From the IMG/VR virus record IMGVR_UViG_3300026549_000895, positions 175,831 through 239,830 of that record: a stretch of DNA of 64,000 nucleotides; one strand, 5' to 3'. This stretch comes from a virus (Duplodnaviria; Caudoviricetes). The translations under genes and the position numbers were made by a program. This document shows, piece by piece, positions 46,656-51,110 of this stretch. Within the stretch, counting starts at the first letter, position 1, and each line of letters opens with the position of its first letter. The notes beneath the pieces are model-generated. The model worked only from the letters and a program-made list of their open reading frames with translations, was not told the origin of the DNA and ran no database searches.

Positions 46656-49025
46656 TTAGTTATCAAGCATTTCCTTGGTGAACTCGAAGTCGTCCAATAA
46701 CTTCTTTCTTCCAAGAATGTCTTGCTTTGTCTTACCCGAAATGATATCAAGTTCTTTAGCAAGAGCATATGCATCTGAAACATTGATTCTGATGAGTCTT
46801 CTTGTATTCGGATCCATCATCATTTCCTTTGTAGCGATAGCAGGATTTGAACCCAGACCTTTGTATCTGTCCTTTATTGCAGGATATCTCTTCTCTGTGA
46901 AGTTAAAGAATTCTGATAACAATGAAGCATATTCATCTCCATTGTATTTGTATTTAACAATCAGACCAAACTTCTTCTGAGCATCGATAACATATTTGAG
47001 TTCATGAATTAATGAGTCATCTATAACAACAACGAAGTCTATCAGATTATGAACGCCATAAACCTGATTGTTGGATTCATCAAATCCAATTTCCTTGAAA
47101 GTACCAGAAGCCATGTTCAACCATTTCTTCCAATGCTTTCTGAAATCTTCAACAGATTCTCCATACTTTGCAAATCCAAAAGCTATTAATTCCAATAACT
47201 CTGGATTGGAACTTCTGGAGATTGCAACTTCGTGAAGCACATTGTTATATTCAAATGCATCTGTTATCAATTCACGAGAAGTGAACTTGTCATCAACAAT
47301 CTTGATGTTTCCAACGGACTCCAAGCATTTCTCAAGATATTCTGTCTTGTTTGCGATATACTGATAATTTTTCTTACCAGTTTTACCAGTTTCAATCTTA
47401 TACAGAGGAGCTTCTGAAATATACAGTTTTCCTTCTGTAATGATTTCTGGCATCCATCTCCAGAAGAACAGAATAACCAGAACTCTAATCTGGAAACCAT
47501 CAATATCCGCATCAGTCTGTATGATGATTCTTGAATACTTCAAGTTCTTAATATTGAATGTTGGTCCAATACCACATCCGAGAACTTTAATCAAATCTCT
47601 CCATATACGTGATTGAAGAACTCTATCAAGACTTTCGCTCCAAGCATTCAGAGGTTTACCCTGCAACAGATATATTGCCTGGGTCTTTGGATCTCTGGCT
47701 GTACGAACACCACCTGATGCTGATTTTCCCTCACAAAGAGATATCTCGATAATGCGTTTATCATTCGATGAACACGAAATAAAGTTAGCAGGTTTCTCCC
47801 ATGACTTGATAGCTTTGGTTTCCTTTGAAACATTTCGAGCTTGCTCTCCAGCTTTACGAACTCGATTGTTCTGAATAACTATTTCAACTAAATCATTGAT
47901 ATGAGAAGGATGAGCGCATATCTCTTCATATACAGCTTTCTCGATAGCATGTAACAGAGGACGAGGGAACACATAACTCTTTTCCTGCGAATTGAATATG
48001 TTAGCACAGTCAGTTTCACACTTAAGAACTACCTGAAGATGTGAGAGAACATCCTTCTTTAAATCATCATCTTTCAAAGCCGGTTTCTTCTGAATAACCT
48101 TCTCTGTCAGATATTGAGTTAATCCATTGATAAGTCCATTCATATGCATTCCATTGTTGAATGTTGAAATCATATTCATCCAAGACTTACGAACATCTTC
48201 ACCCTTATAATCAGCCGAAGTATATACAATACTTGCTGTCAGATTGAATGATCTATTATACGGAACCTCTCGTACAATTTCAATCAACTTTCCAGAACAC
48301 GAAATATCATATGGAATACAAAGAGTATTGGCTGTTGTAATACCAGCCTCATCAAAATAGTCATATAGTCTTTTATGTTCAACGGAATATTTCTTACCAC
48401 GAACTGAATAGTCGAAATTTATCTTCGGAGATAAGGTGTATCTGAAACTTGTGACCCAATCAACGAGAGTATCCACAGGAATCTTATCGGTTCCGAGTAT
48501 TTGTTTGGAAGGTTTGAATTCTGTATACATTCCATGGTCGTCACCTGTATACTTCTCAAGATTCTCTTCAACAAGTTTTCCTTCTTTGTAGACAAGAGTC
48601 AATCTCTTCTTTTCCTGAGGACGTGTTGAAACTAACTTCAGATGAGATGACAATGCTGCTGATATTGTTGTACCTGCACCATTTTCACCAGCTGACATGA
48701 TACCTTCTTTTCTTATAATATTTGAACCTGCGTTCAAAGTCTCAAATATTTTTCGAAGATCTTTTGTGGCAATACCTCTACCATTATCTTTAACTGTCAG
48801 AGATGTGTCAGTTATTGATAATTCGATAGTGTTGCCAGGTGTGTCTGGTTTTATACATTCATCAAGAGAGTTTGCAACTATCTCATCACAAATGTGCTTA
48901 ACACCTTCTTCTCCAACATAGCCATTATACATAGCCGGTCTATTTCTGATTTTCTCAATATCAGATTCGATGAACATCATTTCATCATCTTTATAATCAA
49001 ATATACTTTTCTTATCTGCTTTCAT
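46656..49025 (-). CDS. gyrB: Type IIA topoisomerase B subunit (GyrB/ParE-like)
   Basis: IRNRPAMY, EIVANSLDE, DNGRGI, CEGKSA, QGKPLN, TDADIDG, RYKGLG; SD aaaggag before ATG 49025. Confidence 0.92.
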   Translation of the reverse strand: MKADKKSIFDYKDDEMMFIESDIEKIRNRPAMYNGYVGEEGVKHICDEIVANSLDECIKPDTPGNTIELSITDTSLTVKDNGRGIATKDLRKIFETLNAGSNIIRKEGIMSAGENGAGTTISAALSSHLKLVSTRPQEKKRLTLVYKEGKLVEENLEKYTGDDHGMYTEFKPSKQILGTDKIPVDTLVDWVTSFRYTLSPKINFDYSVRGKKYSVEHKRLYDYFDEAGITTANTLCIPYDISCSGKLIEIVREVPYNRSFNLTASIVYTSADYKGEDVRKSWMNMISTFNNGMHMNGLINGLTQYLTEKVIQKKPALKDDDLKKDVLSHLQVVLKCETDCANIFNSQEKSYVFPRPLLHAIEKAVYEEICAHPSHINDLVEIVIQNNRVRKAGEQARNVSKETKAIKSWEKPANFISCSSNDKRIIEISLCEGKSASGGVRTARDPKTQAIYLLQGKPLNAWSESLDRVLQSRIWRDLIKVLGCGIGPTFNIKNLKYSRIIIQTDADIDGFQIRVLVILFFWRWMPEIITEGKLYISEAPLYKIETGKTGKKNYQYIANKTEYLEKCLESVGNIKIVDDKFTSRELITDAFEYNNVLHEVAISRSSNPELLELIAFGFAKYGESVEDFRKHWKKWLNMASGTFKEIGFDESNNQVYGVHNLIDFVVVIDDSLIHELKYVIDAQKKFGLIVKYKYNGDEYASLLSEFFNFTEKRYPAIKDRYKGLGSNPAIATKEMMMDPNTRRLIRINVSDAYALAKELDIISGKTKQDILGRKKLLDDFEFTKEMLDN

Positions 49026-49094
49026 AATTTTCTCCTTTGAATAAAATAAGTTATGTATTTTAATAGTTACTACGAGAGCATTATTATCCCTCGA

Positions 49095-49110
49095 CACAAT
49101 AAGGATATAT
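49095..49110 (-). promoter_or_regulatory. Putative early-class promoter for the topoisomerase gene
   Basis: atatatccttattgtg on the minus strand. Confidence 0.55.
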
Positions 49111-49233
49111 CTCTATAATTAAAATATTTACAATCCAATAAGAGACTTATCGAGTGCAGTCTCTCGAGGGAGTGATGACCCCTCGTGTTAATGAATCCTC
49201 CATTGTTTTAATTCTTTTCTTCTTTGTGCAATA

Positions 49234-49251
49234 CCCTCCCTTCGGGGAGGG
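49234..49251. terminator. UUCG-loop GC hairpin
   Basis: ccctccc-ttcg-gggaggg. Confidence 0.55.
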
Positions 49252-49264
49252 CACCTTTCCAATT

Positions 49265-49297
49265 TTTTAACTTTTCATATGTATATTATTAATATGA
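49265..49297 (+). promoter_or_regulatory. Putative early phage promoter
   Basis: 31/33 identical to 913-945. Confidence 0.65.
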
Positions 49298-49538
49298 ATA
49301 GAACAGAGGATATCTATAAGGTGGAATTCCTTATGGCGGTCTATTAAGGTTTATGGATATGAAAAGCGAGTTCTATTCTCATATACCATAACGGCTCAGG
49401 ATTAATAGGTCGATATATGTGTGGGGGTGAACGTAAGACGACGCATCCCATCATCCCAGGAGAGAGGGTGGAGTAAAATCTCTCCATAGTTAAAAAGAAA
49501 CGCCGTTGACTTTTCAGCCGCGTTTCTTTTTTCTTTTT
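49296..49538 (+). ncRNA. Candidate structured ncRNA with pseudoknot and own terminator
   Basis: Five stems plus a 9-bp 5'-end/loop pairing; terminator 49492-49538; only tiny ORFs. Confidence 0.6.
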
Positions 49539-49595
49539 GTAGCGTATCCTTTGACAAATCGGTAATTTTTATTTTAAGAAAGGAGAGATCATTTA

Positions 49596-51110
49596 ATGCG
49601 TATTTTAAGTTTATACGATATTGATCTCAATATAAAAACAAATGATTTGATGGAAGTAACAAGTTCCAGAATATATTCAGGTGGTAATACATTCAATGAG
49701 AAAGGTTTGATGTCCGAAACGATATTTGGAATCACTCCTGAAGATAGAATGTATAAATGCGGATATATTAAATTGCCTTGTCATGTGTTCAATCCAGATG
49801 TTGCTAAAACGATAATCAATCGTGGTGGAGGTATCATCAGAAAGTGTGCATATGGTGAAGTAACTTGTGATATCATCGATGGAGTACTCACTAAGAAAGA
49901 AGGAGGAAATATCTGTGGTTTCGAAGATTTGTATAAGAATTGGGAAAAGATTAATATTGAGAAAACTTTGACATCAAAGGTTGCTAACAATATTACTATT
50001 CTCACAAAGTCTCCGAAACGTTTGTTGTTCACAGATAAGGTTTTGGTACTTCCTCCAAACTTCCGTCCTATTGGTGAAAGAAATGGTAGACCGGTAAAAG
50101 CTGAGCTGAATAACATATACGGAAAAATTCTTGGTTTGAAGGATGTATCATCACACACTTCAGGCAGAGGTGTCTATCCATTATACGGAAAGATTCAGGA
50201 TGCTTTAATCGAAAACTACACATACATTTCTAAATACATGGGAGGAAAGAATGGATTCTTACAGCGTCACCTGCTGGCAAAGAATACACAGATGACTCAG
50301 AGAAACGTTATTTCTGCTCCGAGGTATAATAAGAATAAGTCACCAATTGGAATTTTCAAAACAGGTTATCCATTGCATACAGTAATGGGACTGTTCCTTC
50401 CATTTGTTAAATTCCAAATGAAACAGTTTTTATCTTTTTCTAACATATCTCAAATGCATTCAAATCCCGAAGAAGTTGATGCCAGTACAATAGAGAATCT
50501 TTATGACTCTACTGAGATAGATGCATTAATTAAAATCTATGGTAAAAATCCTGGTAATAGATTCAGAAAGATGTATCTTGATGCAGAAGGAACTAAACCG
50601 ATTACAATTTCTTATTTTGATAATAATAAGAAAGAAGAGGTAACACGTGAACTCACACTGACTGATGTTGTTTACATTTGTGCTAAGAGAGCTGTTGAAG
50701 ATGGTAACAAACATGTTCTTCTGACACGTTATCCTATAGGAAGTTACAAGGGAACCTTCTTCTCAAAGGTACATATTTTATCGACTAACGATACGACAGA
50801 TGTAACTTTCCAAGGTGATAGGATGGAATACTATCCCGTGGTCGATCCTGATAGATCACATGGAGAAGTTGCTGTTTCTTTTGCTGATACTCTAACTCCT
50901 TCCAATTCACGTCTTTCTGCAATCGGCGGAGATTATGATGGAGACACTGTTAAGTCAGTTGGCATGTGGTCAGATGAAGCTAATGAAGAAGCAGAACGAC
51001 TCATGTATTCTAAGATATATTCTGTTCAACCTAATATGGATAGTATGTATGAAATTGCAAAAGGTTGTTTGAATGGTCTATATTCAGCAACGAAACGAAA
51101 AAAGAAATAA
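49596..51110 (+). CDS. Phage RNA polymerase beta-prime subunit, N-terminal catalytic piece (probably virion RNAP)
   Basis: GLMSETIFG, VLPPNFRP, GKNGFLQRHLLAK, RNVISAP, LTRYP and catalytic GGDYDGD. Confidence 0.92.
   Translation: MRILSLYDIDLNIKTNDLMEVTSSRIYSGGNTFNEKGLMSETIFGITPEDRMYKCGYIKLPCHVFNPDVAKTIINRGGGIIRKCAYGEVTCDIIDGVLTKKEGGNICGFEDLYKNWEKINIEKTLTSKVANNITILTKSPKRLLFTDKVLVLPPNFRPIGERNGRPVKAELNNIYGKILGLKDVSSHTSGRGVYPLYGKIQDALIENYTYISKYMGGKNGFLQRHLLAKNTQMTQRNVISAPRYNKNKSPIGIFKTGYPLHTVMGLFLPFVKFQMKQFLSFSNISQMHSNPEEVDASTIENLYDSTEIDALIKIYGKNPGNRFRKMYLDAEGTKPITISYFDNNKKEEVTRELTLTDVVYICAKRAVEDGNKHVLLTRYPIGSYKGTFFSKVHILSTNDTTDVTFQGDRMEYYPVVDPDRSHGEVAVSFADTLTPSNSRLSAIGGDYDGDTVKSVGMWSDEANEEAERLMYSKIYSVQPNMDSMYEIAKGCLNGLYSATKRKKK

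Follow-up and report, generated by a model that had tools for sequence, protein, structure and literature searches.

The morons that Juhala and Hendrix described in lambdoid phages are autonomous insertions composed of a promoter, a gene and a terminator. In Firmicutes mRNAs, stabilising stem-loops at the 5' terminus are known from ermC, from aprE and from the early RNA of phage SP82. The PeSL cassettes of T4-type phages are modules of an early promoter and a stem-loop which border variable, non-essential cargo (Arbiol et al. 2010, PMC2839356; Comeau et al. 2014, PMC4122927). In Bacillus phage AR9, 41 early promoters were defined by dRNA-seq and primer extension; they follow the consensus AAATATATATTAT-(6N)-G+1 and are read by the injected virion RNA polymerase (RNAP) (Lavysh et al. 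2017, PMC5312081), and the late consensus of the same phage is AACA-(6N)-TA/G (PMC5312081). Small RNAs (sRNAs) derived from intergenic regions and from 5' UTRs have been detected experimentally in the jumbo phages 201phi2-1 and phiKZ, and one of them is conserved across genera (PMC11512511). Small RNAs encoded by phages are poorly charted as a whole, and hardly any information about them exists for jumbo phages that infect Gram-positive or gut hosts.

Here we describe RNA-A, a predicted early transcript of ~237-240 nt free of open reading frames (ORFs), located at 49296-49535 on the plus strand of the 64-kb stretch, hereafter called the window, that ends an IMG/VR virus record of 239,830 bp (36% G+C). 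Its start is placed by promoter homology and its 3' end in the U tract past a terminator. By analogy with the systems above, RNA-A would be a small RNA that the phage encodes within a shuffling cassette, comparable to an AR9 early unit combined with a mobile cassette of the PeSL or moron type, and it falls outside the curated RNA families.

Results

Genomic context of the locus

RNA-A is situated in an intergenic gap of 570 nt between a divergent topoisomerase gene and an RNAP beta' gene. The left neighbour runs on the minus strand, ends at 49025 and encodes a GyrB/ParE-like topoisomerase; its early-type promoter (TATATCCTTATTGTG, 49095-49110, minus strand, +1 at about 49095), which is followed by a 5' hairpin, fits the early-promoter family described below and lies outside RNA-A. 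The left border of the cassette site is formed by a conserved structured element (49129-49268, plus strand), which contains a late-type motif TACA-N6-TAA (49129-49141), two hairpins, a CCUCC motif, a hairpin at 49234-49251 and a distal T run. This element was found in every close relative, with or without an RNA cassette, and an alignment of its eight distinct versions, analysed with alifold, revealed compensatory changes between lineages in one of the two hairpins.

The right-hand neighbour encodes the N-terminal subunit of the virion-RNAP beta' (49596-51110, plus strand, 504 aa). The nearest isolate homologues of this protein are RNAP beta' pieces encoded by AR9/PBS1-like jumbo phages that infect Firmicutes (Listeria, Bacillus and Staphylococcus), with ~30% identity; among the AR9 proteins, the best match is g145, which carries the annotation of virion RNAP beta' N-terminus (30% amino acid identity, E = 8e-37). 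This homology places the phage as an uncultured relative of the AR9 group of jumbo phages. It also suggests that the beta' gene is of the late class, since the beta' homologue is a virion component according to the AR9 annotation. The carriers of the locus derive from rumen and gut metagenomes, and the host labels obtained from MAGs disagree (Parabacteroides, Bacteroidales, Spirochaetaceae), with no consistent host.

Promoter, terminator and insulation from the RNAP gene

The region immediately upstream of RNA-A (49270-49295, plus strand) is organised as an early promoter of the virion-RNAP type, with a TTTTCATATG block, the core TATATTAT at 49282-49289 and the 6-nt spacer TAATAT at 49290-49295. 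It matches the AR9 early consensus at 11 of 13 positions and has the identical spacing to G+1, so that the predicted +1 is G49296, a position which coincides with the first base of the 5' arm in the 9-nt complement presented below. A sigma-70 scan gave no match at 49270-49296. These features match those expected of an AR9-type virion-RNAP early promoter, and we predict that RNA-A is expressed from one. The initial annotation had proposed a duplicated promoter at this place; the promoter is indeed present, and what was taken for a duplication is one member of a genome-wide early-promoter family. The extended block (TTTTCATATG / TATATTAT / TAATAT / G) occurs in at least eight strict and about 20 looser copies in the genome of the window, in at least nine copies in the 258-kb relative G001, whose RNAP is 56% identical, and in further copies in G004-G007, with many in G004. 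The copies are usually located directly downstream of a terminator hairpin, and the early-promoter motif heads many non-structural genes in the genome of the window as well as in its relatives.

The early units of AR9 have in common with those described here the TATATTAT core, the 6-nt spacer, the G+1, a repeated motif facing non-structural genes and the homologous split multisubunit RNAPs (PMC5312081). The block of the present group is nevertheless extended in comparison with AR9, with TTTTCATATG upstream and GAAUAGA as the initially transcribed sequence, and the start is predicted here whereas those of AR9 were mapped. Transcripts of the present group also often begin with a 5'-terminal hairpin, unlike the AR9 early transcripts that were scanned, and the RNA-A unit carries no gene.

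At its other end, the unit is closed by an inverted repeat at 49492-49540 (plus strand), in which a GC-containing hairpin of -19.6 kcal/mol (49492-49531) directly precedes the U tract UCUUUUU; this is the form of an intrinsic terminator, as had been proposed. Further downstream, a late-type promoter motif GACA-N6-TAAT (49553-49566, plus strand), with one mismatch to the AR9 late consensus, belongs to the context of the unit; it stands ahead of the RNAP gene and is kept in the sister lineage as GACG-N6-TAAT. Since the RNAP gene thus has a late-type motif of its own, the RNA-A unit would be insulated from it and would stand alone, and an early unit placed ahead of a late gene needs its terminator. 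The description of the RNA as early is in agreement with the fit of its promoter to the virion-RNAP early consensus of AR9, with the predicted +1 at 49296 and with the presence downstream of a virion-RNAP gene of the late class that has its own late-type motif.

Variation of the site among close relatives

We collected 20 loci whose beta' protein is 87-99% identical to that of the window and compared the site that extends from the upstream hairpin (49234-49251) to the late motif, the boundaries of the RNA-A cassette being set from the empty and replaced sites in relatives. RNA-A was found in six distinct variants at 14 loci (the window, L031, L038 and L066-L076). In L036 and L037 the site is occupied by RNA-B, an unrelated, ORF-poor and strongly structured RNA of 303 nt (z = -4.5), between flanks essentially identical to those of the window. 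In L080 it holds an ORFan of 148 aa with no Pfam or PHROG family, and in L030 and L077-L079 it is empty, with clean junctions in the T tract. The junctions of the cassette are located within two tracts, the T tract that follows the upstream hairpin and the U tract of the terminator. The beta' gene is 99% identical at the amino acid level in strains without the cassette or with an unrelated one, and the existence of cassette-free strains implies that RNA-A is dispensable. Farther relatives (69% and 56-57% identity) carry different content at this site; in G001, an early promoter and two small ORFs precede the same RNAP gene, and a 94-aa ORF of G001 has no Pfam or PHROG family.

The comparison of the window with L038 delimits an island of identity, the RNA body being 98.5% and the promoter 97% identical, against ~80% for the flanking coding sequences, 62-76% for the flanking non-coding DNA and 63% for the terminator. 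The terminator of L038 has been swapped for an unrelated GC hairpin and U tract of equal stability, while the RNA-A body is retained. The island is most simply read as the trace of a recent lateral exchange of the cassette, to which purifying selection may add; because no homologue is found past the closest lineages, conservation is inseparable from recent lateral transfer. A body that is 98.5% identical where the flanking genes are ~80% identical also points to an accessory, laterally exchanged 'RNA moron'. The initial description of an independent non-coding unit equipped with a promoter and a terminator of its own is well borne out by these comparisons, given that the unit is gained, lost or replaced as a whole between strains and that its terminator was exchanged in L038 independently of its body. 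We consider that RNA-A is quite probably a stand-alone non-coding early unit.

As with the PeSL cassettes, near-identical phages differ by insertions, deletions and replacements located at conserved modules of early promoter and stem-loop or terminator. The differences are that the promoter is of the phage virion-RNAP type rather than sigma-70-like, that the carrier is an AR9-like jumbo phage and that the cargo is a non-coding RNA. The likeness to the morons of lambdoid phages resides in a self-contained unit inserted between two conserved backbone genes and present in some relatives only; unlike these morons, the unit has an RNA as cargo instead of a protein gene, and its predicted expression is early lytic and not that of a prophage.

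Coding potential and secondary structure

The short reading frames without a good Shine-Dalgarno sequence that had been listed at the outset include no credible ORF. A 12-codon ORF at 49353-49391, a 22-codon GTG ORF at 49421-49489 and a 47-aa ORF on the minus strand can be read, and a Shine-Dalgarno-like AGGUGG precedes a 4-codon ORF by 8 nt. Seven positions vary among the six RNA-A variants, and this natural variation destroys or alters the ORFs. The substitution G40A turns the ATG of the 4-codon ORF, the one mini-ORF that has a good Shine-Dalgarno sequence, into ATA, which is carried by half of the variants; in the 12-codon and the 22-codon ORF, the substitutions alter the encoded residue (S to P, R to K). 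The loss of the start codon together with the non-synonymous changes leaves no sign of coding constraint and shows RNA-A, at the sequence level, to be non-coding.

The 5'-terminal arm of RNA-A, GAAUAGAAC (RNA nt 1-9, 49296-49304, plus strand, DNA GAATAGAAC), is also the conserved initially transcribed sequence of the promoter class. It is perfectly complementary to GUUCUAUUC (RNA nt 75-83, 49370-49378, plus strand, DNA GTTCTATTC). This complement, which can be read directly, was recovered independently as an inverted repeat, and in the same genome a perfect 9-nt complement to the first 9 nt within 115 nt is expected by chance at 0.25% of random positions. Four further helices, all on the plus strand, were located where the initial annotation had placed them. 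They are the hairpin P1 (RNA 19-26 / 34-41, 49314-49336), with the loop UGGAAUU; the long bulged stem P2 (RNA 42-67 / 84-117, 49337-49412, arms 49337-49362 / 49379-49412), the 16-nt apical loop of which carries the complement of the 5' end; the hairpin P3 (RNA 129-154, 49424-49449), with the variable position 142 in its loop; and the hairpin P4 (49459-49485), with 7 bp and the 13-nt loop GGGUGGAGUAAAA.

Without its terminator, the RNA-A body has an unremarkable nested folding energy (z = -1.4), which 17 of 200 shuffled sequences match or surpass. The nested models offer two alternatives of almost equal energy, the 5' stem and the long stem (-71.1 vs -69.0 kcal/mol), which share the ensemble ~40:60, and the 9-bp 5' duplex, if formed together with the long stem, would contribute ~-9.2 kcal/mol. 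It is possible, according to these models, that nt 75-83 pair with nt 1-9 either within the P2 loop, giving a pseudoknot, or in a 5' stem that is incompatible with P2. The pseudoknot appears energetically plausible and its topology looks sterically possible, since a loop of 7 nt would cross 9 bp and the connector would measure 32 nt.

In the structure model of the initial annotation, 99.7% of the alignment cells are paired across the six variants. Three of the seven changes are one-sided and preserve pairing (G40A, from G.U to A-U in P1, and A-U to G.U twice in P2), and three of the variable positions lie in loops or linkers. The remaining change, U82C in L067 and L068, weakens the 9-bp 5' stem, the second pair of which becomes an A.C mismatch. 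In three variants, substitutions disrupt two pairs of the alternative nested MFE fold. No compensatory, double-sided change was detected among the RNA-A variants, either in this model or in the alternative fold, so that the pattern of variants does not amount to statistical support for the fold. The variation would mildly favour the P1/P2 architecture and says nothing decisive about the pseudoknot. As regards the possible pseudoknot, which would be of the H type, both helices exist, the count of compensatory pairs is zero, no covariation is seen and the 9-bp stem bears the A.C break.

5'-terminal hairpins on early transcripts

Many early transcripts of this phage group start with a helix that covers +1 or +2, as in GAAUAG...CUAUUC, GAGAAAGA...UCUUUCUC and GAUAUAAG...CUUAUAUC. 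In the strict set of 45 promoters, the initial 45 nt of the transcript fold more stably than random 45-mers that start with G (MFE-based, Mann-Whitney p = 7e-6), and a paired 5' end combined with a fold of <= -6 kcal/mol is found in 47% of the strict set against 25% in the null; a contiguous-helix test on the looser promoter set was marginal (p = 0.08). An excess of 5' hairpins was also considered for AR9 and rejected, as 23 AR9 early promoters show none, and the feature can consequently not be borrowed from the model phage. The tendency to form a 5' hairpin is thus real and specific to this phage group, and is not universal.

In RNA-A, the partner of the 5' end is unusually distant, 66 nt downstream and within the P2 loop. 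The resemblance to the stabiliser stem-loops and to the pseudoknots that resist exoribonucleases (xrRNAs) lies in a base-paired 5' end which may pair into the loop of a downstream hairpin, an arrangement that would hinder RNases acting from the 5' end, such as RNase J or Y. In contrast to xrRNAs, the three-way-junction features that define their ring fold are not evident in RNA-A.

Searches for families, homologues and targets

An Rfam scan of the whole window returned nothing at gathering score except one tRNA, in line with the initial annotation, which could assign the RNA to no known family. A permissive scan of 49000-49620 gave only matches driven by the terminator, among which CsrC scored highest with 20.6 bits, its gathering score being 61, and Rfam scans of the RNA-B and RNA-C loci gave only terminator-like noise. 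ARAGORN found no tmRNA, the Rfam scans contained no riboswitch or T-box match, and no ribozyme, 6S, CsrB/C, ROOL or GOLLD model reached its gathering threshold. Type III antitoxin RNAs of the ToxI kind are tandem arrays of ~36-nt repeats beside an endoribonuclease toxin. The suggestion of an antitoxin mimic is not supported, there being no tandem repeat except the terminator T tract and no ToxI-type direct repeats; as for the suggested ribozyme, nothing points specifically to one.

A blastn search of the RNA against 50,697 isolate phage records gave no match, and exact-pattern scans of IMG/VR with two RNA segments gave 0 hits; one metagenome scan of this kind yielded one further carrier, L038. 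BLAST of RNA-A against the related phages G001 and G003-G007 detected promoter copies only, and a covariance model of the RNA-A body, run against the same genomes and 16 loci, matched only the window itself. RNA-A has no similarity to RNA-B or to RNA-C (567 nt, from a relative). The best duplex energy in a scan of 272 phage translation-initiation regions was -35.6, with a mean of -39.1 for shuffled RNAs; since this is no better than shuffled, no phage target is called. The sRNAs of 201phi2-1 and phiKZ are similar to RNA-A in being short units (<250 nt), encoded by giant phages that possess RNAPs of their own, in which a terminator closely follows the start. They differ from it in that there is no relationship in sequence or in Rfam, and in that RNA-A varies between strains and is known here from sequence alone.

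Discussion

The reading that we favour, with a probability of roughly 0.55, is that RNA-A is an autonomous accessory early transcription unit, or 'RNA moron', of an AR9-like jumbo phage of the rumen and gut, which would produce a stable trans-acting RNA with a buried 5' end. We infer that the injected virion RNA polymerase would initiate at G49296 from the TATATTAT-N6-G promoter, and that ~237 nt without a reading frame would be transcribed until the strong intrinsic terminator ends the transcript, thereby insulating the late virion-RNAP beta' gene. The unit would lie outside the core genome, being gained, lost or replaced by recombination at two conserved borders, one between terminator and early promoter and the other between terminator and T tract. 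The transcript would fold into P1, the long P2, P3 and P4, with its first nine nucleotides pairing with the apical loop of P2 and so burying the 5' end. As in many early transcripts of the group, this buried end most plausibly guards against decay that depends on the 5' end. We propose that the resulting stable RNA would act in trans during the first minutes of infection, serving as a decoy or sponge that binds or titrates a factor of the host or of the phage, perhaps in counter-defence. The early timing, the variable presence, the interchangeable cargo and the protected 5' end would all fit a trans-acting RNA that titrates or mimics such a factor, and a role in counter-defence would fit the patchy distribution of RNA-A among strains. 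That it acts as a decoy is a guess.

The same observations may be accounted for without any function at the level of the RNA, if the borders recombine readily and the 200-nt body is a transcribed passenger, i.e. neutral cargo such as a decayed ORFan cassette, the identity of which reflects recent transfer only. Such a passenger would explain why the site elsewhere holds unrelated cargo or nothing, why the island of identity coincides with the cassette, why the z-score of the body is only -1.4 and why neither covariation nor distant homologues are seen. It is unlikely but deserves serious consideration: of the four states of the site, RNA-A is the most frequent (14 of the 20 loci), and it occurs in two lineages whose flanks have diverged by ~20%, no remnant of a reading frame is visible, all seven substitutions except U82C fit one structure model, and the 9-nt complement of the 5' end is improbable by chance. 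It can also be envisaged that the early promoter and the structured RNA form a cis-acting leader or attenuator, riboswitch-like or protein-dependent, that governs early read-through into the beta' gene. The terminator lies only 60 nt upstream of this gene, which in G001 is likewise preceded by an early promoter with two small ORFs, and many sRNAs of 201phi2-1 come from premature termination in 5' UTRs (PMC11512511). Control of this kind nonetheless seems improbable for a gene that is 99% identical in strains with no cassette or an unrelated one, and whose own late-type motif is conserved in both lineages, the more so as the terminator is strong, without an evident antiterminator alternative, and no riboswitch or T-box was matched.

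Two further alternatives concern what the transcript would carry. A micro-protein could be encoded by the 12-codon ORF (49353-49391), by the 22-codon GTG ORF (49421-49489) or by the 47-aa ORF of the minus strand; short ORFs are present, and the AGGUGG motif lies 8 nt before the 4-codon one. We regard this as highly improbable in view of the change from ATG to ATA in half of the variants and the non-synonymous changes in the other plus-strand ORFs, which moreover have no good Shine-Dalgarno sequence, just as the minus-strand ORFs have no promoter. A sponge of the CsrB/Rsm type, in which exposed GGA motifs titrate a CsrA-like or other host RNA-binding regulator, would be a specific version of the reading that we favour. 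Four of the six GGA triplets are unpaired in the structure model, the candidate displays being the 5' linker, the P1 loop UGGAAUU, the P2 internal loop CAGGA and the P4 loop GUGGAG, and none of the seven variable positions touches a GGA. This version is doubtful indeed, because composition leads us to estimate ~4 GGA in 190 nt, not far from the six present, and because the sole CsrC signal in Rfam comes from the terminator (20.6 bits vs 61).

Beyond the accessory early unit that we favour, a wider hypothesis can be formulated, to which we attach little credence for the present. Rumen and gut AR9-like jumbo phages would carry a set of mobile and interchangeable early 'RNA morons' (RNA-A, RNA-B and RNA-C), shuffled by means of virion-RNAP promoter and terminator modules, which would serve as strain-specific RNAs for counter-defence or host takeover. 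The pseudoknot of RNA-A would then block 5'-to-3' exonucleolytic decay in the manner of an xrRNA-type cap and make a long-lived decoy.

The locus constitutes a natural experiment, in which near-identical phages differ by the cassette at a single site (RNA-A, RNA-B, an ORFan or nothing), and this series of presence, absence and replacement makes the function of RNA-A testable once a host is found. Separately from this, the 5'-terminal hairpin that recurs on early transcripts is a trait of the phage group which can itself be tested. These observations extend to uncultured gut phages the idea that early promoters of the AR9 virion-RNAP type are conserved, and they also extend the idea that modules of promoter and terminator shuffle non-coding as well as coding cargo.

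Sequences flanking the RNA-A cassette

The predicted ORF-free early transcript RNA-A is directly preceded, on the same (+) strand, by a conserved structured element at 49129-49268, which is found in all close relatives, whether RNA-A is present or not. The element includes the late-type motif TACA-N6-TAA (49129-49141, +) and a first hairpin, GAGACU/AGUCUC, followed by a second that shows compensatory changes between lineages, CGAGGG/CCCUCG in one versus GUGAGGG/CCCUCAC in the other. On the 3' side of both hairpins lie the anti-SD-like motif AAUCCUCC and a further hairpin at 49234-49251. We propose that the element may be a second sRNA of about 130 nt, late and belonging to the core genome, or else a leader. 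On the other side of the cassette, the virion-RNAP beta' gene opens with 100 nt (49600-49699) that are 98% identical between the window and L038, the sister-lineage locus that carries RNA-A, while the remainder of the gene reaches ~80% and the 60-nt spacer directly 5' of it 70%. The highly identical stretch may represent a second recombination tract, or the N-terminus may be under strong constraint.

Candidate ORF-poor RNAs in related phages

In the phage of L036, whose RNAP gene is 99% identical, the exact site of RNA-A is filled by RNA-B (L036:2636-2938; ENA ERZ1667809 scaffold_857), an unrelated, ORF-poor stretch of 303 nt with a strong fold (MFE -103 kcal/mol, z = -4.5), for which Rfam holds no family. 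RNA-C, located in the relative G001 with a 56% identical RNAP (IMGVR_UViG_3300033463_000005, ~145,383-145,949; L008:1535-2101), is a GC-rich stretch of 567 nt that begins with an RNA-A-type early promoter and a 5' hairpin, GAAUAGAGAGG/CCUCUAUUC, and is closed by a terminator. It contains no ORF longer than 60 aa and has no match in Rfam; we regard it as a candidate large early ncRNA. As to hosts, the MAGs holding the relatives L063-L065 (GTDB MAG contigs; RNAP identity 54-58%) are labelled Parabacteroides, Bacteroidales and Spirochaetaceae, whereas the nearest isolates infect Firmicutes. The genes of this phage use strong Shine-Dalgarno sites.

5'-terminal hairpins of early transcripts

The early promoter of RNA-A (49271-49301) is a quasi-palindrome, its arms (49271-49285 and 49287-49301) being 80% complementary, and an imperfect repeat of its 3' half (81% identity) lies within RNA-A at 49351-49366. 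Elsewhere in the record, outside the window, a dispersed repeat occurs on the minus strand in four copies of at least 75 nt each (G000:C1 ~27453, 91348, 100552 and 158601), starting with TTAATGGATTAAATATATTATGTTGAA, ending near AGCCCGGATTCGACAC and containing the TATATTAT core in every copy. Genome-wide, transcripts of the early (TATATTAT-N6-G) class in this phage group show a tendency to begin with a hairpin at the 5' terminus in which +1 or +2 is included, examples being G000:C1 764(-), 20218(+), 39735(-), 61943(+), 103957(-) and 28378(-); early transcripts of the Bacillus jumbo phage AR9 do not share it. The initially transcribed sequence, GAAUAGA, is conserved across phages, and its complement is supplied locus by locus.
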